Below are positions 3,001-47,141 of a stretch of DNA of 64,000 bases, piece by piece. Numbering within the stretch: the first letter of the stretch is position 1; every line of letters begins with the position of its first letter. This DNA is from an uncultured Bacteroidales bacterium. GTDB lineage: Bacteria > Bacteroidota > Bacteroidia > Bacteroidales > JBBRXJ01. The translations under genes and the position numbers were made by a program. The stretch spans positions 1,040 to 65,039 of the forward strand of contig CAZJWE010000002.1 in assembly GCA_964549265.1 (NCBI GenBank). Direction: 5' to 3'. The notes beneath the pieces are model-generated. The model was not told the origin of the DNA. It worked only from the letters and a program-made list of their open reading frames with translations, and searched no databases.

Positions 3001-3458
3001 ATATTTCTAAACCTTTTAGTCCGGAAGCATTGCTTCTTAGAGTGTCAAATATCATAGAAAGCCGCAAAAAGATACAGGAAAAAATTGACTATGGTCTGGA
3101 GTTAATTCCTGTGGAAGACAAATTGACGGATTATGATAATTACCTGTTGAATAAAATATTAGAGACGATCCGTGAAAACATATCCGATTCTGATTTAGGC
3201 CCCGAAAAAATTTGCAATGCCGTTGGAATAAGCCAGTCACATTTATACCGTAAGGTCAATGCATTGGCCAATCAATCTGTCAAAGAACTTATCAGAAACA
3301 TAAGATTAAATAAAGCATCCGAAATCCTCAGGGAAGGCAAAAATGTTAGTATTAACAATTTAGCTTATTCGCTTGGTTTCAGTACACCCGGATATTTCAT
3401 AAAGATGTTCAGGAAGAAATTTGGGGTGACGCCTAAGGCATATAATAACAAGCCTTAA
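3..3458 (+). CDS. hybrid two-component sensor histidine kinase/response regulator with AraC-type HTH (HTCS); 5' end cut by window edge
   Basis: Frame is open from nt 3 to the listed ATG at 135, so the gene starts upstream of the window. Propeller-like repeats (NLWIGT, RLWIAT, RIWILT). One TM segment (FWTSIWGYSLYGFLGLLAFLIY). H-box FNISHEIRTPLTLI. ATPase boxes LSNAIKHT, DTGEGI, GSGLGLS. Receiver LLVDDNEDLL...ISDIMMPEMDG. C-terminal AraC HTH LAYSLGFSTPGYFIKMFRKKFGVTP. Confidence 0.9.
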   Translation, partial: PNILIIGTHTNLFWFFDLAKRKFVEKQEITFILNKTNGSVKTYCMHKDETGNLWIGTPNTLNIYNPKKPELLYSTKAFKNGSLANEPYRDQAYTIFEDRDNIIWVSFMTMGIEKYVPKKSVFFRYKTTIKKPGKQRDYIKKIIETNHLLYIATYGDGLLITDKDGKLIKRVNLAYYTKSEMSNATRDISFDKKGRLWIATDNGLHYYNPLTDRIEQSFFMSSNDDNILPKHLITKLVKENDSTIWVLSDAWFKKLNPLQLTFHETELTRIAKSDNPIILWYQDRDGNYWIRYPKSILFYNPAKDTTIHYTPKTFPPIVVASSMCMLHARSGNYWFGTSNALYMYDKENNIFKHFSGNDKFKSNFVLDIEEDSKGRIWILTDKGLTIYAPEKNEFIQYGKQNGLSERADYINHGKNNFFFITDESSFYHFHPDSIKMESLQAPLLLNQFSVSGKPVEISSTPLSGVSIQYKKQIELPYSKNSIGFKFSLLDYSSPKNHTYSYRLLGSDSSWIYIGNNNSVNFTGLSPGRYNLEIKGKAMNKTGESMSPKLSIVIRPPFWTSIWGYSLYGFLGLLAFLIYRFLTIKKMKNEHALLMEKINIEKARELDQLKLNFFFNISHEIRTPLTLISGPLSQLTKQKINAEGTQSLNLIQRNVSRLKEIVNQLLDIGKLEMGKYKPAIIKGNPRDLFVEIIHSFEPFCQKMDLTFHYKLDEFTSDCWYSPDACEKIISNLLSNAIKHTGRGGQIEFGCTLLESIPKDDTTDAMMNIVNNQYVSNSRYLFLEVSDTGEGIDASELSAIFNRFHQSIKKGTKPSFGSGLGLSLTKDLVKQMGGRLYIQSALKKGTKIKVYLPLDRNAFPKNYIEKKRMDHHHEMNKEHVNMLANTNDLIFEEDTSGTNKKRRMNILLVDDNEDLLMFLKGLIKKHYHVIMAKNGNEAIHKIRNTSVDMVISDIMMPEMDGLELCKTIKSDVSTSHIPIILLTAKSSEEDEIKGLKIGVEDYISKPFSPEALLLRVSNIIESRKKIQEKIDYGLELIPVEDKLTDYDNYLLNKILETIRENISDSDLGPEKICNAVGISQSHLYRKVNALANQSVKELIRNIRLNKASEILREGKNVSINNLAYSLGFSTPGYFIKMFRKKFGVTPKAYNNKP

Positions 3459-3465
3459 CAAAAAA

Positions 3466-3496
3466 AGCCCCAATCCTTAATGATGAGATTGGGGCT
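3466..3496. terminator. hairpin terminator between convergent genes
   Basis: agccccaatc (3466-3475) pairs perfectly with gattggggct (3487-3496). An A-run lies before it and ttt after, between the HTCS stop and the minus-strand ORF end. Confidence 0.6.
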
Positions 3497-3553
3497 TTAA
3501 ATTAATAGTTTACTAAACTAAAACTAAGCTCAAATATTATCAGTATGAAATGA

Positions 3554-3871
3554 CTATTCCTTTATAAAAATCTTTTTCACTATTCCTTGTTCTATATTGC
3601 ATGTAATTACATACATACCTGGCATAAGGTCAGAAACATCTATCTGCTGAATGTTATTATTTTGTATTTCAATGAGTGTGTTTCCGGTTAAATCACTTAC
3701 TTTAATACTTGAGATCCCTTCTATTCCGGAAATTTTTAATATTTTTTTAATAACTTTGTATAACGTAATAAGGTTCAAATTCGAGGCGTGTAAGAAACCT
3801 AAACCTGAGAATACTGGAGTATTTGAAGATTTAGATTTTGGATAACTATTTATAAAAACTATGTTACACAT
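3554..3871 (-). pseudogene. orphan T9SS type-A C-terminal sorting domain fragment (no passenger domain)
   Basis: C-terminal ~55 aa (IKVSDLTGNTLIEIQNNNIQQIDVSDLMPGMYVITCNIEQGIVKKIFIKE) matches the Por secretion tail pattern. The ORF is only 105 aa and its 5' end overlaps the next gene. Confidence 0.4.
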
Positions 3872-4427
3872 TCGGTTTCGTTATGCATCGCGGCCTAAAA
3901 AAAAATTTCCCGAAGAAAACAAGGCTTTCGGAGGGATGCTGGGCGGACATATTTACATTCAAATCAATGAAACATTATATGGTTTCCAACCTGCTGACTA
4001 TAACCAGTATCATTTTTTCCCGCACAAACCTTATAATGCTGTTTACACCAAACAACACATAAAGGATTGGTGGGTTTCAGAACAACACAACAAGCTATTA
4101 ACCATTGATATTCCTATTTCTTCTCAGCACCTCCACAGGTTAAGAGAGCTTCTTGAGCAATATCATCAGAGTGCACCATATGATTATGCTGTATTAGGTA
4201 TGAGGTGTGCTTCTTCCACGCATCATGTTCTCTCCAAAACAGATATTTTTTGTCCATCATCTATGATGAAAAGCTGTATATTGAATCCTATTCCCCGGTG
4301 TTTGCGGCGAAAACTGGTGAAAAAGGCTGTACATAATCATTGGAACATGAAGATTCATCAAGGAAGCTCTAAAAGAATATGGGAACAATCATTTAAAATG
4401 ACAAAACTATATATGAAACACCCGTGA
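3861..4427 (+). CDS. hypothetical protein (His-then-Cys order, GGHIYIQ ... MRCASS, faintly like permuted papain-fold enzymes)
   Basis: Intact 188-aa ORF. No confident family recognised. Confidence 0.45.
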   Translation: MLHIRFRYASRPKKKFPEENKAFGGMLGGHIYIQINETLYGFQPADYNQYHFFPHKPYNAVYTKQHIKDWWVSEQHNKLLTIDIPISSQHLHRLRELLEQYHQSAPYDYAVLGMRCASSTHHVLSKTDIFCPSSMMKSCILNPIPRCLRRKLVKKAVHNHWNMKIHQGSSKRIWEQSFKMTKLYMKHP

Positions 4428-7918: not shown

Positions 7919-8035
7919 TGGAGTCCAAACGTTCCCAAAGTCAAACAACTTCATTATACAAAAGAAATATTTTTTATGTAAATGAGCCATTTTGGTGCAA
8001 GCGAAACCAAGTTAGCAGACATGATGGAACAAACA
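7919..8035. repeat. R2 intergenic repeat, compact copy A
   Basis: ggagtccaaacgttcccaaagtcaaacaacttcattat ... ttttggtgcaagcgaaaccaagttagcagacatgatggaacaaac. Both halves recur at 36716-36952 and the right half at 45171-45227. Confidence 0.7.
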
Positions 8036-12234: not shown

Positions 12235-12349
12235 TACTGTCCAAGTGCTTAACAGGTAAAATTAAAAAAAGCAATCCTAAGAGGTAATTGCTTAACCCGA
12301 AAAATTCATCGCAAACCGATAGGAATCAATAAAAATACCGGTTATATAT

Positions 12350-12439
12350 TATGGGCCAAAATCAATCCGGTTTGCCCCGGTCCTGAAGGGAGCCGGATTA
12401 TTTTTGGCGGTTACATCTAAAACTCTCGGAAATATGTAA
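12350..12439 (+). repeat. R1 hairpin element, L-type solo copy E1 (stem partly degraded)
   Basis: gggccaaaatcaatccggtttgccccggtcctgaagggagccggattatttttggcggttacatctaaaactctcggaaatatgtaa. Homologous to 13413-13502, 14851-14941 and 22314-22404. Confidence 0.85.
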
Positions 12440-12450
12440 ATTTGATTTAA

Positions 12451-13472
12451 TTTTCTTTTTGTATTTTTATTCTACATAAACAAATTGTCACAATATTAAA
12501 TTATTGACCAGTATGAATGAACAAAAAATTGAAAAGATAAGCACAACCGACAATCAAAAGAAAGAAATCCATAAAGCAATTCAATCCGGTAACTACGCCC
12601 ACAACGAAAAAGTCTGGACATACTTTGTTGCACATTTAATCTTAAACAGTAAGAATAAAAAACAACTTTTGGAAAAATTCCTGGGTGGAAATAGTATAAA
12701 GGAACCCTGTGTAAAGGAAATGGAGATATGGTATGAGGCCCAACCCATTTCACCACGAAAAGGGGTGAGCGGAAATAGTGAAGGGAACACATGTTTGGAC
12801 ATGTCCTTTGGTGCCATAAAAAAAAGAGAAGAAACAGACGGTGGCATTGAATTCTCTCCCAAAAAAGGCTGCACATGGGCCTGTTTTATAGAAGCAAAAG
12901 TACTCTCCGACTGCAGCACAGATGTGAGTTACGACCCATTCCGCAACCAAATTACCCGTGTAATAGAAAATCTGGTGACATTTCAAAACGCTAAAGAAAA
13001 AAGCAGTTACCCCAACCCCTGCTATTTTACATTGCTGACACCACGGGCATTTAAAGAAAGGCCCTATTCAAAATTATACGGATATAAATATTTTGAATAC
13101 CATGACTGGCAAAGAATAGAACAAGATTTTGAATTATGCTGCATTGACAAACGAAAGGAAAGCCGGTGGGAATATCCAAAATACATTTCCAAACGCCTCT
13201 CCACCCTCAAACTAAACTGGGTAACCTATGAAGAGATCATTGAACAAGAGCTGGGCATAACTAATTTTGATCTGCTGGAGTTTATTAAGGTGAAGAACCG
13301 GAAAGAACAGAAAGAAATAATGGATGAAGGGATGAAAAAAGAGAAGAGGTATTTTGATAAAATAAAAGAAGAGCTGTTTAAATATCTAAAAGAAAATGAA
13401 TTGGCTTAACATATTGGGCCAAAATCAATCCGGTTTGCCCCGGCCCTGAAGGGAGCCGGATTGATTTTGACG
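12451..13472 (+). repeat. direct repeat DR-A (~1.02 kb; promoter region, nuclease-like gene and hairpin)
   Basis: Near-identical to 21353-22374. It begins at ttttctttttgtatttttattctacataaacaaattgtcaca and runs through the gene into the hairpin. Confidence 0.9.
12513..13409 (+). CDS. PD-(D/E)xK nuclease-motif protein, copy 1 (family unknown)
   Basis: The ORF track starts at TTG 12504; ATG 12513 is more likely. Motif NTCLD(12798-12800)MSF ...x26... WACFIE-A-K(12891-12899)VLSD then FRNQITR, i.e. D...ExK followed by a conserved Q. Second copy at 21414-22310. Confidence 0.7.
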   Translation: MNEQKIEKISTTDNQKKEIHKAIQSGNYAHNEKVWTYFVAHLILNSKNKKQLLEKFLGGNSIKEPCVKEMEIWYEAQPISPRKGVSGNSEGNTCLDMSFGAIKKREETDGGIEFSPKKGCTWACFIEAKVLSDCSTDVSYDPFRNQITRVIENLVTFQNAKEKSSYPNPCYFTLLTPRAFKERPYSKLYGYKYFEYHDWQRIEQDFELCCIDKRKESRWEYPKYISKRLSTLKLNWVTYEEIIEQELGITNFDLLEFIKVKNRKEQKEIMDEGMKKEKRYFDKIKEELFKYLKENELA

Positions 13473-13502
13473 GTTACATCTAACACTCTCGGAAATATGT
13501 AA
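13413..13502 (+). repeat. R1 hairpin element, L-type solo copy E2
   Basis: The conserved element starts 3 nt after the stop at 13407-13409 and the hairpin 6 nt after it. The 14-bp stem caaaatcaatccgg/ccggattgattttg encloses tttgccccggccctgaagggag, followed by the shared tail cggttacatctaacactctcggaaatatgtaa. Confidence 0.85.
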
Positions 13503-13564
13503 TTTTATGGGTTAATGAAATAAATATTTTTACAATAATGTATAATATATTTCACAATAATACA

Positions 13565-13686: not shown

Positions 13687-13902
13687 ATGGAAATGGTATG
13701 TGAAAGGGCTATGATAAGCCGAATTACACTTACTAAAATTGAAAAAGGCGATCCTTCTGTAAGTTTGGGTGCTTATTTTAAGGTGTTGTCCATTTACAAT
13801 CTTGAAAAAGACATAACCGTATTGGCCAAAGATGATGTATTTGGTAAGAAACTGCAAGATATAGGATTAATCACAAAAAAACGTGCACCCAAAAAACAAT
13901 GA
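13687..13902 (+). CDS. XRE/HipB-like HTH antitoxin (N-terminus uncertain)
   Basis: MEMVCERAMISRITLTKIEKGDPSVSLGAYFKVL is an HTH. The frame is open upstream to 13576 and encodes helix-1-like LGEQIKLARLRRKLS, but has no ATG/GTG/TTG there. 4-nt ATGA overlap with the HipA-like gene. Confidence 0.65.
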   Translation: MEMVCERAMISRITLTKIEKGDPSVSLGAYFKVLSIYNLEKDITVLAKDDVFGKKLQDIGLITKKRAPKKQ

Positions 13903-14687
13903 CACAACAAAACAAAATATATGTATTCGAGCAATTTGGAGACGCTCCAAAATTGATGGGTATCCTAAATGTTGACAAGGTAAGAGGAAAAGAAACATTC
14001 TCCTTTGAATACAATAAAAACTGGCTTAAAACAAATTCCTACCCTTTACTTGACCCCGACATACAACACTACAATGGCATTCAGTATCTTCAAGATGAAA
14101 ACAAGCCAAACTTTGGGATATTCCTTGATTCCTCTCCAGACAGATGGGGCAGGGAACTTATGCAGCGCAGGGAAGCAATTTATGCCAGAAACGAAAACAG
14201 AAAAAGAATTCACGTAGCCTCTGCTATGACAATGTTGGGCTACTATGACGGGTATAACGAAAATGTAAGCTATCTTGAAATAGCTGATTTTTTAACCCGG
14301 CATTCTGTTAATCCGCACAAAAATCTACAGGAACTATTTCGTAGGATTGCATTTAACATCAGCGTGTCAAATTGTGATGACCATCTCAGAAATCACAGTT
14401 TTATATTTGACAAAAAAGGTATTTCACTTTCCCCGGCTTATGATATTAACCCAGATGAAATAGGACATGGGTTAAGCCTGAATATTTCCCTGCATGATAA
14501 CAGCCTTGACCTGGAAATTCTAATGGATACCCATGAATATTACGCGCTTCAAAAAGACGAAGCCTTGCAGATAATTGAACAAGTAAAAGGTGCAGTATCA
14601 GGATTTGATGTTGTGGCAAAAAAGACCGGGTTATCAAAAACAGAAATTGACAAAAAAGCTGTCGCATTTAAACAAGCAATGAGATAA
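13899..14687 (+). CDS. HipA-family kinase toxin with large in-frame internal deletion (probably inactive remnant)
   Basis: N-terminal HipA coupling region (FLDSSPDRWGRELMQRREAIYAR) joins directly to the C-terminal lobe (HVASAMTMLGYYDG ... ISVSNCDDHLRNHSFIF ... LSPAYDINP). The product is 262 aa versus roughly 400+ aa for typical HipA. No P-loop/ATP-binding segment is visible. Confidence 0.7.
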   Translation: MTQQNKIYVFEQFGDAPKLMGILNVDKVRGKETFSFEYNKNWLKTNSYPLLDPDIQHYNGIQYLQDENKPNFGIFLDSSPDRWGRELMQRREAIYARNENRKRIHVASAMTMLGYYDGYNENVSYLEIADFLTRHSVNPHKNLQELFRRIAFNISVSNCDDHLRNHSFIFDKKGISLSPAYDINPDEIGHGLSLNISLHDNSLDLEILMDTHEYYALQKDEALQIIEQVKGAVSGFDVVAKKTGLSKTEIDKKAVAFKQAMR

Positions 14688-14850: not shown

Positions 14851-15048
14851 ATTGGGCCAAAATCAATCCGGTTTGCCCCGGCCCTGAAGGGAGCCGAATT
14901 GATTTTGCCGGTTATCACATAAACAACCGGAAATATATAATGTTGATTTTTTAAATATATACACCTGAAATAAATAGCGTTTTCGCTGAAAATCCGGGCT
15001 CCCTTCAGGGTCGGGGCAAAACCTGATTTTCAGCCCGTATTGGTAGTA
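14851..15048. mobile_element. R1 doublet E3: REPIN/MITE-like element (L hairpin 14854-14911, spacer, inverted R hairpin 14985-15034)
   Basis: The L and R hairpins carry the same loop core in opposite orientation (ccctgaagggagcc vs ggctcccttcaggg) with different self-complementary stems. The spacer and ends are about 90% identical by eye to 22314-22510. Confidence 0.8.
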
Positions 15049-21205: not shown

Positions 21206-21352
21206 TGGTTGATATTTAAAGTTATATTTTTTAACCCAGCATTTTAAAAATGATAATGAATAACAAAAGCTAATGTAGCAAAAAAAAATAAGTTAAAAAA
21301 ATGCCTCTTAAATACGATCCTTTAGAATTTGTTAATCTTCCATTAAATTTAT

Positions 21353-22374
21353 TTTTCTTTTTGTATTTTTATTCTACATAAACAAATTGTCACAACATTA
21401 AATATTGACCAGTATGAATGAACAAAAAATTGAAAAGATAAGCACAACCGACAATCAAAAGAAAGAAATCCATAAAGCAATTCAATCCGGTAACTACGCC
21501 CACAACGAAAAAGTCTGGACATACTTTGTTGCACATTTAATCTTAAACAGTAAGAATAAAAAACAACTTTTGGAAAAATTCCTGGGTGGAAATAGTATAA
21601 AGGAACCCTGTGTAAAGGAAATGGAGATATGGTATGAGGCCCAACCCATTTCACCACGAAAAGGGGTGAGCGGAAATAGTGAAGGGAACACATGTTTGGA
21701 CATGTCCTTTGGTGCCATAAAAAAAAGAGAAGAAACAGACGGTGGCATTGAATTCTCTCCCAAAAAAGGCTGCACATGGGCCTGTTTTATAGAAGCAAAA
21801 GTACTCTCCGACTGCAGCACAGATGTGAGTTACGACCCATTCCGCAACCAAATTACCCGTGTAATAGAAAATCTGGTGACATTTCAAAACGCTAAAGAAA
21901 AAAGCAGTTACCCCAACCCCTGCTATTTTACATTGCTGACACCACGGGCATTTAAAGAAAGGCCCTATTCAAAATTATACGGATATAAATATTTTGAATA
22001 CCATGACTGGCAAAGAATAGAACAAGATTTTGAATTATGCTGCATTGACAAACGAAAGGAAAGCCGGTGGGAATATCCAAAATACATTTCCAAACGCCTC
22101 TCCACCCTCAAACTAAACTGGGTAACCTATGAAGAGATCATTGAACAAGAGCTGGGCATAACTAATTTTGATCTGCTGGAGTTTATTAAGGTGAAGAACC
22201 GGAAAGAACAGACAGAAATAAAGGATGAAGGGATGAAAAAGGTGAAGGCGTATTTTGATAAAATAAAAGAAGAGCTGTTTAAATATCTAAAAGAAAAAGA
22301 ATTGGCTTAACATATTGGGCCAAAATCAATCCGGTCTGCCCCGGCCCTGAAGGGAGCCGGATTGATTTTGCCGG
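21353..22374 (+). repeat. direct repeat DR-B (partner of 12451-13472)
   Basis: Same sequence as DR-A. Differences are one substitution plus a 1-nt indel upstream of the ATG, a cluster of substitutions in the last ~100 nt of the gene, and two in the hairpin. Confidence 0.9.
21414..22310 (+). CDS. PD-(D/E)xK nuclease-motif protein, copy 2
   Basis: Identical to copy 1 for the first 269 of 301 listed residues. 5 substitutions fall in the last 32 (QTEIKDEGMKKVKAY...KEKELA vs QKEIMDEGMKKEKRY...KENELA). Confidence 0.7.
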   Translation: MNEQKIEKISTTDNQKKEIHKAIQSGNYAHNEKVWTYFVAHLILNSKNKKQLLEKFLGGNSIKEPCVKEMEIWYEAQPISPRKGVSGNSEGNTCLDMSFGAIKKREETDGGIEFSPKKGCTWACFIEAKVLSDCSTDVSYDPFRNQITRVIENLVTFQNAKEKSSYPNPCYFTLLTPRAFKERPYSKLYGYKYFEYHDWQRIEQDFELCCIDKRKESRWEYPKYISKRLSTLKLNWVTYEEIIEQELGITNFDLLEFIKVKNRKEQTEIKDEGMKKVKAYFDKIKEELFKYLKEKELA

Positions 22375-22510
22375 TTACCACATAAACAACAAGAAATATG
22401 TAATGATGATTTTTTAAATATATACCTGAAATAAATAGCGTTTCCGCTGAAAATCAGGGCTCCCTTCAGGGGCCAGGGCAAAACCTGATTTTCAGCCTAT
22501 ATTGGTAGTA
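22314..22510. mobile_element. R1 doublet E4: REPIN/MITE-like element (L hairpin 22317-22374, inverted R hairpin 22446-22496)
   Basis: The conserved element starts 3 nt after the copy-2 stop and the hairpin 6 nt after it. Same architecture and terminal attggtagta as E3. Confidence 0.8.
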
Positions 22511-36715: not shown

Positions 36716-36952
36716 GGGAATCCAAACTTTCCCAAAGTCAAACAACTTCATTATGTGAAAGAACTATTTTGAATATTCCATTTTTCAATAGTCATATGAC
36801 ATTATTTTCTGGTTGTATTTCCCGAAGCGTTGCCATCGGGTTGAAATAATTAGGGCTTTCAGCTCATAAAATATATCATAACAACCCTAATTTTAATTTG
36901 TTCCAATTTTGGGGCAAGCGTAACGAAGTTAGCGGCTATTATGGACAAACTC
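36716..36952. repeat. R2 repeat copy B, interrupted by an R3 element (36821-36864) plus flanking insert
   Basis: The left half gggaatccaaactttcccaaagtcaaacaacttcattat and right half ttttggggcaagcgtaacgaagttagcggctattatggacaaac match copy A. They are separated here by ~125 extra nt containing cccgaagcgttgccatcgggttgaaataattagggctttcagc. Confidence 0.7.
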
Positions 36953-43196: not shown

Positions 43197-43228
43197 AGTT
43201 TAAATGTTCCACGTGGAACATTTAAACT
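43197..43228. repeat. 32-bp perfect palindrome P1 (likely bidirectional terminator)
   Basis: agtttaaatgttccac|gtggaacatttaaact, between the convergent ispB-like and uvrC genes. Confidence 0.8.
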
Positions 43229-43241
43229 TATTCTTCAAATA

Positions 43242-45047
43242 CTAATATTTATTAAAATATTGATGTATTTTAATTGCTTTATCGCGTCCAATAATATGTT
43301 GTAATTGTTCAACAGATTGAGATTTAATTTTTTCAATATCTTTGTAATGTGTTAACAATTTTTGGATTGTTTGATAACCTATACCATTAATGTTTTGCAA
43401 TTCACTATTGATTGAATGCTTTGAACGGATGTTTCGATGAAATGAAATCCCAAATCGATGTGCTTCGTCACGAAGATGCTGAAGGAGTTTTAATGATTCA
43501 GAATTTTTATTAATATACATAGGATACGAATCACCAACTTGAAAAACTTCATCCAACCGTTTTGCAATTGCAATGAGCTTAATCTTTGTTTCTAATTGCA
43601 ATTCTTTGAGACTGAAGAAGGCTGCATTCAATTGACCTTTACCTCCATCTATTACTATTAATTGGGGAAGGTCACTCTTTTCTGAAAGTAGACGGTGGTA
43701 TCGTCTGTATACAACTTCCTTCATGCTGGCATAATCATCAGGGCCTGTTACACTTTTGATATGATATTTTCGATACTCGCCTTTTGAAGGTTTACCATTC
43801 CTAAACACAACACATGCCGCTACAGGATGTTTTCCCTGTATATTAGAATTATCAAAGCACTCAATGTGTTGTGGCATTTGATCGAGTTGAAGATTTCGTT
43901 TTAATGATTCAAGTTTATGATTTTTCTTTTTACGTTGCTTTAAATGTTCTCTTTGCTGTATTTTAATATTCTTGAAATACATAAGATTCGTTTGAGATAA
44001 TTCAACCAATTTTCGTTTATCTCCAGACTTAGGAACTGTAATTTTGATATTAGGAATTTGAATATCTATTTGATTAGGAATGATAATTTCTGTTGATTTA
44101 CTTTCCAATTGTTCTCTGATTCTAAGAATTGCTGTGGGAAATATATCGTGAATAGATTCATTTAATTTCTTTTTAACTTCTACTGTATACACCTGTACAA
44201 CCGTTCCGTTAATGATTTTTAAATAATTAACAAAAGCTTCATTTTGCTCATTTTCAATAGTAAATACATCAACATTATGTATTTTGGGATTTGCGACTTT
44301 GGATTTATTGTGATATGATTTAATGATTTGAATCTTTTCTTTAATTTGTTCAGCTTTTTCAAATTCTAATTTTGAAGCGGATTCATTCATCAAATGTTCT
44401 AAATATTGGATAACATCCTGTATATTTCCATTTAATATTTTTTTAATTTCTGCAATATTTTGCATGTATTCCTCTTCTGTTTGAAGATTTTCACATGGTG
44501 CTTTGCAATTTCCAATATGGTATTCTAAACATTTTTTATATTTTTTGTTTTTCACTGCCGATTCGGATAAATGATACTTACATGTTCTGATGGGATATAA
44601 TTTTCTTATTAATTCCAATACGGTTTTCACTGTCTTCATAGATGTATACGGGCCAAAGTAATCAGATCCATCTTTAATTATATTGCGTGTATAAAATACT
44701 CTGGGAAATCGTTCATGTTTTATGCATATCCAGGGATATGTTTTATCGTCTTTTAATTGTATATTATATTTTGGTTGGTGCTTTTTGATTAGACTATTTT
44801 CTAAGATGAATGCTTCCGTTTCATTGTCTACTATAAAATATTGAATTGTTTTGGTTTTATTTAGCAATAAATCAATTTTTCGTTTATTATAACCTTGCTG
44901 ATTAAAATATGATAAAATTCTATTCCGAATGTTTTTTGCTTTTCCTATATATAAATAATGTTCATCTTTATCCATAAACTGATAAATTCCAGGTTGAGTA
45001 GGAAATGTTTTGGCTATATTATACAATTGATTGATATGATTATTCAT
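43242..45047 (-). CDS. uvrC: excinuclease ABC subunit C
   Basis: GIY-YIG N-terminus (PGIYQFMDKDEHYLYIGKAKNIRNR), UvrBC region, endonuclease V-like domain and C-terminal HhH. Confidence 0.95.
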   Translation of the reverse strand: MNNHINQLYNIAKTFPTQPGIYQFMDKDEHYLYIGKAKNIRNRILSYFNQQGYNKRKIDLLLNKTKTIQYFIVDNETEAFILENSLIKKHQPKYNIQLKDDKTYPWICIKHERFPRVFYTRNIIKDGSDYFGPYTSMKTVKTVLELIRKLYPIRTCKYHLSESAVKNKKYKKCLEYHIGNCKAPCENLQTEEEYMQNIAEIKKILNGNIQDVIQYLEHLMNESASKLEFEKAEQIKEKIQIIKSYHNKSKVANPKIHNVDVFTIENEQNEAFVNYLKIINGTVVQVYTVEVKKKLNESIHDIFPTAILRIREQLESKSTEIIIPNQIDIQIPNIKITVPKSGDKRKLVELSQTNLMYFKNIKIQQREHLKQRKKKNHKLESLKRNLQLDQMPQHIECFDNSNIQGKHPVAACVVFRNGKPSKGEYRKYHIKSVTGPDDYASMKEVVYRRYHRLLSEKSDLPQLIVIDGGKGQLNAAFFSLKELQLETKIKLIAIAKRLDEVFQVGDSYPMYINKNSESLKLLQHLRDEAHRFGISFHRNIRSKHSINSELQNINGIGYQTIQKLLTHYKDIEKIKSQSVEQLQHIIGRDKAIKIHQYFNKY

Positions 45048-45229: not shown

Positions 45230-45261
45230 AAAGCAAATGTTCCACGTGGAACATTTGCTTT
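45230..45261. repeat. 32-bp perfect palindrome P2 (same 22-bp core as P1)
   Basis: aaagcaaatgttccac|gtggaacatttgcttt. It lies 9 nt downstream of the mnmG stop and 183 nt upstream of the uvrC start. Confidence 0.8.
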
Positions 45262-45269
45262 TTGAAAAA

Positions 45270-47141
45270 CTATCTTTTCATATGTACCAGTAATACATTG
45301 ATATCTGCTGGTGATACGCCTGGAATTCTGGAAGCTTGACCTATGGTTTTAGGTTTGATTTTATTCAATTTTTGTCTTCCTTCAAATGATATTGACTTTA
45401 AAAAACTGTAATCTTCTTGTTTCAATTCAATGTTTTCAAGGCGTTTAATTTTATCTGCTATATCACGTTCCCTTTCAATATATCCGGCATATTTCATTTC
45501 AACTTCAGCAGATTCAATTATGTCCTCACCAAATTCACCTAAATTTTTAACCAATCGGCTGAATTCTTCATGTAATTCTGCAATATCTATTATTTTAATT
45601 TCTGGTCTTGCCAAAATATCTACGATGGGAATTTTCTGTTTTATTTTGCTCGACTGAATTTGTTCTAAATATTCATTTATTTGTGCAGGTTTTATACTAT
45701 TCTTTCGACAAAATTCAATAATGGATTGTTTTTTATGCATTTTATCCTGAAATATTTTTCTCCGGTTTTCAGTTACCAATCCTATTTCTATTCCTCTCTT
45801 TGTTAAACGTTCGTCTGCATTGTCCTGTCGTAATAATATCCTGTATTCAGCTCTCGATGTAAACATTCGATATGGTTCATCTACACCTTTATTTATCAAA
45901 TCATCTATTAATACACCAATATATGCTTGATTGCGTTTTAATATAAATGGACCTTTTTGATTGATTTTATTATGTGCATTGATTGCAGCAGCCAATCCTT
46001 GCCCTGCTGCTTCTTCATAACCTGTAGTCCCATTAATTTGCCCGGCAAAATATAAATTCTTAATGATTTTTGTTTCCAATGTGTAATCCAAAATGGTTGG
46101 GTCAAAATAATCATACTCTATAGCATAACCAGGCCTGAATACTTTAACATGTTCCAATCCTTTAATCTTTGTTAGTGCTTTGTATTGAATATCCCATGAC
46201 AATGATGAAGAAAATCCGTTTAAATAATATTCAATTGTAGAATGCCCTTCAGGTTCTAAAAATAACTGATGTTTTTCTTTTTCGCTAAATGTAACAATTT
46301 TATCTTCGATGCTGGGGCAATAGCGTGGGCCAATACTTCTTATTGTTCCGTTTAATAAAGGAGAATCACTAAATCCTTCTCTTAATATATTATGTACATC
46401 TTGATTGGTATAGGTAATGTAACAATTTTTGGTTTCATTAATTTTCAATTTAGGATACAGAAACGAAAACTTCCCATTTTGTTCTCCTTCCTGTACCTGC
46501 ATTTTTTTAAAATCTATTGTCCTTCCATCCAATCGTACTGGTGTTCCTGTTTTCATCCTGCCTACTGGAAATCCTAATTGAACTAACTGATGACTTAAAA
46601 AATAGGACGGCTTTTCCGAAATCCTTCCTCCTTCTATTTTGGTTTTTCCAATGTGCATTAATCCGTTTAAAAATGTGCCATTTGTTAATATTACTGTTTT
46701 CCCATATATAGCCATTCCTATTTCAGTTTCTACTCCAATAACATAATCGTTTTCTATTATGATTTTATTAACAACATCCTGTACTATATCAATTTTATTA
46801 TTTTCTTCAATCAATTTTCTCCATTCAATTGAAAATTGTATTCTATCACATTGAGCTCGTGGACTCCACATTGCAGGGCCTTTGGATCTATTAAGCATTT
46901 TGAATTGTATCATGCTTTTATCAGTGACAATCCCGGAAAATCCACCCAATGCATCTATTTCACGTATAATCTGTCCTTTTGCAATTCCACCCATAGCTGG
47001 ATTGCATGACATTTGGCCCATTTTGGTCATATCCATGGTAATTAAACAGACTTTCGATCCCATTGTTCCAGCTACAGCAGCTGCTTCACATCCTGCATGA
47101 CCCGCTCCAACAACTATCACATCATAATCGGTATTCTTCAT
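45270..47141 (-). CDS. mnmG: tRNA uridine-5-carboxymethylaminomethyl synthesis enzyme MnmG (GidA)
   Basis: YDVIVVGAGHAGCEAA, GPRYCPSIEDK, FAGQINGTTGYEEAAGQG. Confidence 0.97.
   Translation of the reverse strand: MKNTDYDVIVVGAGHAGCEAAAVAGTMGSKVCLITMDMTKMGQMSCNPAMGGIAKGQIIREIDALGGFSGIVTDKSMIQFKMLNRSKGPAMWSPRAQCDRIQFSIEWRKLIEENNKIDIVQDVVNKIIIENDYVIGVETEIGMAIYGKTVILTNGTFLNGLMHIGKTKIEGGRISEKPSYFLSHQLVQLGFPVGRMKTGTPVRLDGRTIDFKKMQVQEGEQNGKFSFLYPKLKINETKNCYITYTNQDVHNILREGFSDSPLLNGTIRSIGPRYCPSIEDKIVTFSEKEKHQLFLEPEGHSTIEYYLNGFSSSLSWDIQYKALTKIKGLEHVKVFRPGYAIEYDYFDPTILDYTLETKIIKNLYFAGQINGTTGYEEAAGQGLAAAINAHNKINQKGPFILKRNQAYIGVLIDDLINKGVDEPYRMFTSRAEYRILLRQDNADERLTKRGIEIGLVTENRRKIFQDKMHKKQSIIEFCRKNSIKPAQINEYLEQIQSSKIKQKIPIVDILARPEIKIIDIAELHEEFSRLVKNLGEFGEDIIESAEVEMKYAGYIERERDIADKIKRLENIELKQEDYSFLKSISFEGRQKLNKIKPKTIGQASRIPGVSPADINVLLVHMKR

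Follow-up and report, generated by a model that had tools for sequence, protein, structure and literature searches.

The window, i.e., the whole 64-kb stretch of DNA that was analysed, is ordinary Bacteroidota chromosome, with polA, uvrC, mnmG, ruvB, priA, pheS, pfk and several type IX secretion substrates, and no transposase, integrase or insertion sequence was found in its 64 kb. Between 12.3 and 22.5 kb it carries six hairpins of about 50 nt, which are laid out as two inverted doublets (E3 and E4) and two singlets (L1 and L2) among the genes in the following order: an AraC regulator, a beta-helix protein, L1, a 301-aa ORF, L2, hipB-hipA, E3, a 1,992-aa alpha-2-macroglobulin-like gene on the minus strand, a second copy of the 301-aa ORF, and E4. 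The doublet E3 is placed between the convergent hipA-like and alpha-2-macroglobulin-like genes, and the L2 module starts 3 nt past the stop codon of the 301-aa ORF. The features are given below, with the scores of a 46-position covariance model of the hairpin, R1, the E-values of which are rough.

12349..12439, plus strand: L1, singlet module; M-hairpin at 12357-12406 and a tail ending GGAAATATGTAA; 53.6 bits at 12359-12404 (R1)
12445..13504, plus strand: duplication copy 1 (local alignment); about 60 nt of upstream DNA, 301-aa ORF and L module
13412..13502, plus strand: L2, singlet module; M-hairpin at 13420-13469 with a perfect 14-bp stem; 63.4 bits (R1)
14851..15048: E3, inverted doublet; hairpin L3 at 14858-14907 (plus) and R3 at 14985-15034 (motif on minus); 60.2 and 45.3 bits (R1)
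21347..22405, plus strand: duplication copy 2 (local alignment), ending at the tail of L4
22314..22510: E4, inverted doublet; hairpin L4 at 22321-22370 (plus) and R4 at 22446-22496 (motif on minus); 60.0 and 40.7 bits (R1)

All six hairpins have a common loop, hereafter M, of the form TTTGCCCC-N2-4-CCCTGAAGGG-AG. The 13-mer CCTGAAGGGAGCC of the loop core was found six times in the window with at most one mismatch, as against 0.03 expected from shuffles, and the 21-mer GCCCCGGCCCTGAAGGGAGCC five times with at most three mismatches, as against 0.00. The unfiltered search of the whole 64 kb with R1 returned only the six known copies (40.7-63.4 bits), the next matches, of 20 bits or less, being the antisense strands of the same hairpins, so that the other 54 kb have none by this model. 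A preliminary description of the locus had presented the two doublets and two further L-only copies as REPIN/MITE-like hairpins, and the positions which it gave for all four elements are confirmed in the sequence. Its estimate of about 90% identity between E3 and E4 agrees with the 183/199 (92%) counted here, and the tail said to be shared by the L copies is indeed common to the four L modules, each a hairpin with a tail ending GAAATATGTAA, which are mutually 82-93% identical. The loops of L and R are reverse complements of each other; their stems differ, each stem staying self-complementary around the conserved loop. The hairpins form GC-rich islands, as had been remarked, with 50-56% G+C against 33% in the window, and all four L copies lie on the plus strand, downstream of plus-strand ORFs.

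The spacer of E3 is AT-rich and 77 nt long, the window doublets having spacers of 75-77 nt, and the whole of E3 folds as one long hairpin of -85 kcal/mol (z -8 to -9). The stems of the window copies have a few uncompensated mismatches (two in L1, one in L3, one in R3), and stem changes within the window are thus uncompensated decay, the covariation being seen only in the comparison of L with R and with other genomes. By inspection of the flanks, no target-site duplication was detectable at E3, E4, L1 or L2, and the window copies have no terminal inverted repeats. The closest homologue of the flanking 1,992-aa protein in the collections searched is only 53% identical, and these collections therefore hold no close relative for an empty-site comparison. 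Searches for exact protein matches gave only short Logan unitigs of the same organism. Two such unitigs (L137 and L138, from SRR15425352) end exactly inside the L hairpin (...CAAAATCAATCCGGTTTGCCCC), which shows that the repeat breaks short-read assemblies, as is expected at repeats.

Several other features of the window were recorded. At 13687-14687, between L2 and E3, a hipB-like HTH gene (71 aa) overlaps a short hipA-like gene (262 aa) with a HipA_C domain and only a weak match to the N-terminal domain, and the two look like a toxin-antitoxin pair. Two identical 22-nt palindromes AAATGTTCCACGTGGAACATTT at 43202-43223 and 45235-45256 flank uvrC (43242-45047), which with them adjoins mnmG/gidA (45270-47141); each palindrome contains what we take to be a match to the parS consensus TGTTNCACGTGNAACA, and this suggests an origin-proximal region of the chromosome. 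A 54-nt intergenic repeat GGAGTCCAAACGTTCCCAAAGTCAAACAACTTCATTAT..., without an Rfam match, occurs at 7920-7973 and 36717-36770 in copies that are 89% identical.

The local number of M-hairpins was raised in part by segmental duplication. A direct duplication of 1,060 bp, in which 12445-13504 corresponds to 21347-22405 with about 98.5% identity (counted from the mismatches displayed in the local alignment), runs from just past the tail of L1 exactly to the L2/L4 tail ...GAAATATGTAAT, with no hairpin upstream of copy 2; only the L half of E4 belongs to it. Since L2 and L4 both lie inside this unit, they stem from one event, and the four L copies of the preliminary description are all present, but not all independent. 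The two copies bracket hipBA and the conserved 1,992-aa alpha-2-macroglobulin-like gene, and each contains the 301-aa orphan ORF (12504-13409 and 21405-22310). The 301-aa protein has no Pfam, NCBIfam or PADLOC match; it looks like a PD-(D/E)xK nuclease, with an invariant D96 and E127-x-K129 in the alignment and, for an AlphaFold model (pLDDT 83), weak, non-significant Foldseek matches to Cap4, McrC, BstEII and Can2. The homologues are found elsewhere in defence-island-like contexts (WYL, AAA, PLD-DUF87, DUF2779). The 301-aa ORF was considered as a general partner enzyme of the M-hairpins and rejected, its homologues on other contigs having no M motif nearby.

The hairpins were sought beyond the window in two collections, with patterns that in both cases demanded the exact M motif, so that diverged members of the family are under-sampled in the counts which follow. 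The scan of 185,579 species genomes with the pattern TGCCC-N4-5-CCTGAAGGGAGCC gave 83 matches, most of them chance matches in G+C-rich genomes, together with a clear subset in which the motif is the loop of a hairpin with a different complementary stem. Nine such loci belong to Phaeodactylibacter (P. xiamenensis KD52 has two of them, and several MAGs have two or three apiece), and further carriers are one Saprospiraceae MAG, a Bacteroidales MAG (L082) and another Bacteroidales MAG (L073, L079) with a stem identical to the R stem of the window. This R stem, GCTGAAAATCAGG, is also found in an element of the GGCTGTCCAAAAAG type in a Bacteroidales MAG and in metagenomes. The scan of JGI metagenomes, in which the pattern was tied to an AAAATCA stem box, yielded 45 contigs with the element, 18 of them from one sample. 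The exact L stem of the window is absent from the matches of both scans, and no copies of the M-hairpin were found in viral contigs and plasmids.

The search with a covariance model, which had been proposed as a check of the preliminary description, detected 108 hairpins across 63 related loci (338 kb), but no seventh copy in the 64-kb window; four loci (L005, L012, L061 and L076) have the motif without a good stem, score below the R1 threshold and are excluded from the family counts. All elements of the family are intergenic, bar one doubtful match, with 27 in tandem, eight in convergent and seven in divergent gene contexts, according to ORFs that in the related loci are simple calls of our own. 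The elements elsewhere adjoin unrelated housekeeping genes, such as those of MFS and RhaT transporters, Usp, riboflavin synthase and a LiaF-like protein, and among the 146 ORFs within 1.5 kb of related copies no recurrent protein family or transposase was found. Single contigs carry several non-homologous sites, for example, three on L100. The hairpins are, accordingly, a dispersed multi-copy family of small palindromic repeats in intergenic regions of several Bacteroidota lineages. The family is apparently undescribed, as the full-text search of the open-access literature returned neither a publication describing the motif nor relevant REP or MITE work on Bacteroidota.

In one case the doublet occupies the same intergenic site in two syntenic loci, L107 (2315-2436) and L109 (4411-4492), the flanking genes of which are about 70% identical; the first hairpin is conserved far better than these flanks, and in L107 an extra G+C-rich hairpin is inserted between the two M-hairpins. 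The gene downstream of this doublet has a product beginning M-x-FKLEICVDSVES, presumably cutC-like.

The unit of the family, the M-hairpin, is a stem of 10-14 bp with free sequence around a near-invariant loop of about 20-22 nt, TTTGCCCC-N2-4-CCCTGAAGGG-(A/T)G. At least 11 well-paired stem types occur, and the stems vary between lineages yet stay complementary: of the positions in 72 distinct hairpins taken without selection, 85% are paired in register, as against 32-59% when the arms are slid, and in 27 representatives of the stem types 72.5% are paired, as against 41.5 +/- 3% in shuffles, none of 2,000 of which reached the observed value. The pair counts were taken from an in-register alignment (A3) of 30 sequences, selected as having 10 or more of the 12 pairs, the MAFFT alignment of the 72 hairpins (A2) being unusable because it shifted the arms by sequence similarity. 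In A3 all 12 stem pairs have changed on both sides, with a covariation score of 0.71 versus 0.19 (reached in none of 500 shuffles), and this bears out the expectation of compensatory changes once more copies were aligned. The two-sided changes number 126 cells, as against two one-sided cells of the G-U type, and G-U occupies only 2 of 360 stem cells. The stem mismatches, 14 G-U versus nine A-C, are biased by our own scoring and uninformative as a test for RNA. The reading of the covarying stems as a selected structure is, therefore, only partly sustained: the Watson-Crick compensation in the family is full, but the near absence of G-U points to a palindromy of the DNA type, which a copying mechanism can maintain with no selection acting on an RNA fold, and this weakens the argument from selection.

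About 45 doublets were recognised, all of them convergent (plus, then minus) and none divergent, and the only non-convergent pair is at L093 (512-612), where two tandem M-hairpins, both on the plus strand, have related but different stems. As the pair is inverted and always convergent, one M-hairpin can form on each DNA strand. The most frequent layout is a compact one of about 93 nt, and may be written A-M-A'-M'-A, with a middle arm common to both hairpins; through this shared arm the two hairpins, H1 and H2, exclude each other on one strand. Two flavours of hairpin are distinguished by the 5' arm: with an A-run, TGAA is found in 44 of 46 hairpins, usually followed by AG, and with a T-run, TAAA is found in 11 of 16, in most cases with TG after it. 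The six hairpins of the window all belong to the A-run flavour, and the doublets among them have the 75-77-nt spacer, so that they represent a variant layout of the family, and singlets such as L1 and L2 look like decayed or partial elements.

The core was also found inside at least two MITE backbones that have their own terminal repeats and 7-11-bp target duplications. The first, of about 181 nt and named here by the sample Ga0102953, has the ends TGAGTATCCGCAT...ATGCGGATAACCA, is bounded by 9-11-bp duplications of AT-rich targets, contains one compact M-hairpin doublet in an off-centre position, and is active-looking; its copies are at L092, L097, L102, L106, L111, L112, L115-L117, L119, L122, L123, L125, L127, L129-L131 and L135, all from sample Ga0102953 except L127 (other sample), and L125 holds two of them 2.5 kb apart. 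The second, from Phaeodactylibacter, has the ends GTAACTGTTCAGCATA and 7-8-bp duplications, and its copies (L031 at 3458-3649, L059 at 140-331, L083 at 3686-4041) have nested insertions of 40-200 nt between the M-hairpins. For a third backbone, with the ends GGCTGTCCAAAAAG, no target duplication was found. Compact copies that consist of the core only lack both terminal inverted repeats and target duplications. Since at least three backbones with unrelated termini carry the core, the core is not defined by the ends of one transposase.

Among the known systems, the closest kind to the M-hairpins is that of the REP and REPIN repeats (with their BIME arrangements and the Y1 HUH proteins RAYT or TnpA-REP). 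The likeness extends to short extragenic palindromes that occur as singlets, inverted pairs and occasional tandems, to the inverted pair which can fold either as two hairpins or as one long hairpin, to the lack of terminal inverted repeats and target duplications, to many copies per genome and to copies nested in other repeats. Extragenic multi-copy inverted doublets forming a long hairpin, such as are characteristic of REPs, are represented here by the 108 hairpins and about 45 convergent doublets, and the spacing of 71 bp in Pseudomonas REPINs is close to the approximately 77 nt of E3 and E4. The difference is that M-hairpins conserve a loop of about 20 nt across orders, and not a species-specific stem plus tag, and that the compact M doublets share a middle arm and have two fixed hairpin flavours. 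The GT[AG]G sequence of REPs was not seen at the foot of the hairpin, with GTAG or CTAC abutting the foot in 0 of 72 distinct hairpins; GGTAGTA is confined to a position 11 nt 3' of R3 and R4, which is at a single end and on the wrong side. No RAYT (Y1 HUH) gene, such as REPs usually flank, was found in the 64-kb window, and no recurrent family among the 146 adjoining ORFs. The Bacteroidetes have their own RAYT subclass, 2.6, with "atypical" REPs (PMC6006769, Table S1), and the identity of M with these repeats was rejected, as the sequences listed there have no resemblance to it. Of the integron attC sites, the terminators and the ordinary single-family MITEs, each has a defining feature that was not found in the M-hairpins.

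Accordingly, the reading that is preferred here, tentatively and with a little less than even confidence, is that of a REP/REPIN-like non-autonomous repeat acting at the DNA level and recognised through its loop. Small non-coding palindromic repeats would be copied as DNA into new intergenic sites, in the manner of REPs and REPINs, and a trans-acting protein would recognise the folded single strand by its conserved loop, the stem being required only to present that loop. Such a course would involve mobility of the core itself, a single-stranded DNA intermediate and an enzyme whose closest logic may be that of the HUH type, in which a conserved loop is read on a variable stem. The element may also spread passively when a copy sits in a conventional MITE, and the 1,060-bp segmental duplication further raised the local count in the window. 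In the origin or nick-site hairpins of HUH Rep proteins and relaxases, for example, those of CRESS-DNA viruses and rolling-circle plasmids with their conserved nonanucleotide loop, a variable stem presents the loop to a sequence-specific single-strand DNA enzyme. By analogy, the M-hairpins may be compared with these origins in having a conserved loop on a covarying stem; the origin hairpins are, however, single-copy beside the rep gene on the replicon, while M has many chromosomal copies with no rep nearby.

In favour of the REP-like reading it was counted that the core-only and window copies lack target duplications and terminal inverted repeats, as do REPs. The preliminary description was right in kind in its core idea, a hairpin element of the REPIN or MITE sort that propagates and has covarying stems, and this idea is partly supported: the family is dispersed and multi-copy and the inverted doublets are canonical, but the foot has no GT[AG]G and no transposase was found in the window or among the 146 adjoining ORFs. 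The latter results, together with the absence of a recurrent neighbour protein, count against the REP-like reading, as does the location of all window copies within 10 kb. The conservation of M across orders was also counted against it, since REPs as a rule evolve together with their RAYT and vary from genus to genus, and so was the dissimilarity of M to the REPs listed for RAYT subclass 2.6. A functional reading stays alive through the biased orientation of the elements relative to genes, the constant difference between the two hairpins and the persistence of a doublet at an orthologous site. In tandem gene contexts the TGAA hairpin (H1) lies on the coding strand in a ratio of 18:6 (two-sided binomial p ~0.02 by our own arithmetic), the copies of the Ga0102953 MITE being split 4:4, and this orientation, with the fixed hairpin asymmetry, is easier to reconcile with a function that is polar or at the RNA level than with a symmetric DNA site; the persistence of the element at one site in L107 and L109 exceeds what a pure parasite would require.

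The functional reading may take the form of a cis-acting structured RNA in the transcripts of flanking genes, i.e., a 3'- or 5'-UTR stabiliser, a processing or protein-binding site, or a bistable switch, which became multi-copy by means of MITEs and duplication; this is considered rather unlikely. It would accommodate the loop conserved across orders on covarying stems, the co-orientation of H1 with tandem genes, and the doublet retained in L107 and L109, and the mutual exclusion of H1 and H2 through the common arm is switch-like. In RNA folding the structure predicted as favoured for the compact doublet is a long M:M' helix (-31 to -52 kcal/mol, z -4.5 to -5.5), one position of which is a G-U pair in 12 of 14 sequences; DNA folding favours the arm hairpin. 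The predicted M:M' helix has, however, no covariation at all, and the stems are almost without G-U, unlike typical RNA helices. Rfam release 15 gave no window matches at the gathering score, and a search relaxed to E up to 10, which covered the window and also three related elements, gave nothing but noise far below threshold, namely matches to generic long hairpins of miRNA precursors. No intrinsic terminator with a U-tract was called at the six window hairpins by the consensus scan, the loop being of 22 nt, the stems AT-rich and a TTTT run present only within or just after the 3' arm. The occupation of tandem, convergent and divergent regions alike also speaks against an RNA, as do the singlets and the widely spaced window doublets, which have no short-range M:M' option.

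A somewhat broader proposal, also unlikely in our estimate and slightly more so, is that the A-M-A'-M'-A doublet has a conserved function as a nucleic-acid device and is not junk, being either a structured RNA or the substrate of a loop-reading single-strand DNA enzyme, which was captured by several unrelated MITEs and kept at orthologous sites over genus-level divergence. In the RNA form it would be a bistable element or a ribozyme-like motif, with the invariant 18-bp M:M' helix and its fixed G-U; in the DNA form it would be a substrate of a single-strand enzyme that reads the loop, REP/RAYT-like, with different recognition rules.

More doubtful is that E3 and E4 are ordinary MITEs, i.e., deletion derivatives of an insertion sequence with a DDE transposase, moved by cut-and-paste, in which the hairpins would be the terminal or subterminal inverted repeats. 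The folding of the entire E3 into one long hairpin agrees with this, the R stem is common to the GGCTGTCCAAAAAG-type element, and clear terminal inverted repeats and target duplications (9-11 bp and 7-8 bp in the two backbones) delimit relatives that contain this core. The MITEs forming long RNA or DNA hairpins, Correia/NEMIS, ERIC/IRU, RUP and BOX, can be co-transcribed with neighbouring genes, and the M elements are like them in the size of 100-200 bp, the intergenic position, the AT-rich spacer between inverted ends and the occurrence of relatives in MITEs with terminal repeats and duplications. They differ in that the M core is common to MITEs with unrelated termini, exists also alone, and has no known parent insertion sequence. 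The core in at least three such backbones, the compact copies free of terminal repeats and duplications, and E3 and E4 themselves, without a detectable duplication in a window without an insertion sequence, all argue against a plain MITE.

It is highly improbable that the L modules are attC-like sites bounding cassettes (L1, 301-aa gene, L2, hipBA, L3-R3), with recombination at the tail ...GAAATATGTAA. Like integron attC sites, the modules are imperfect palindromes directly past the stops of accessory-type genes (the nuclease-like orphan and hipBA), in the same orientation along the array, and the 1,060-bp unit runs from one L tail exactly to the next. An attC site, however, keeps the boxes of the stem base (R''/L'' and L'/R', GTTRRRY) and varies the loop, beside a linked intI, whereas the M-hairpins do the opposite, with a variable stem and a conserved loop; the window has no integrase (intI), copy 2 of the gene has no upstream L module, the 301-aa homologues elsewhere have no M motif nearby, and the elements of other genomes flank ordinary housekeeping genes. 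A purely local product, in which one ancestral hairpin was multiplied by segmental duplication within 10 kb without propagation, would fit the confinement of the six copies to 12.3-22.5 kb with the other 54 kb empty, the origin of L2 and L4, and the L stem that neither collection scan returned, but it has very little probability left and as a full explanation is already contradicted, because L1 and E3 are not within the duplicated flanks, the L stems differ from the R stems, and unrelated genomes have both the loop and the R stem at unrelated loci.

Small palindromic repeats have been studied thoroughly in Proteobacteria, in which REPs are paired with RAYT proteins; in Bacteroidota they are poorly charted. 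The loop conserved across orders on a free stem is the reverse of the usual REP pattern, and it implies that a protein or an RNA reads the loop sequence-specifically. The 46-position covariance model, the cultured carrier Phaeodactylibacter xiamenensis KD52 and the metagenome with 18 contigs provide the handles for finding this reader. In practice, the M-hairpin repeats break assemblies, and they mark recombination-prone spots of the chromosome, such as that of the 1,060-bp duplication in the window.
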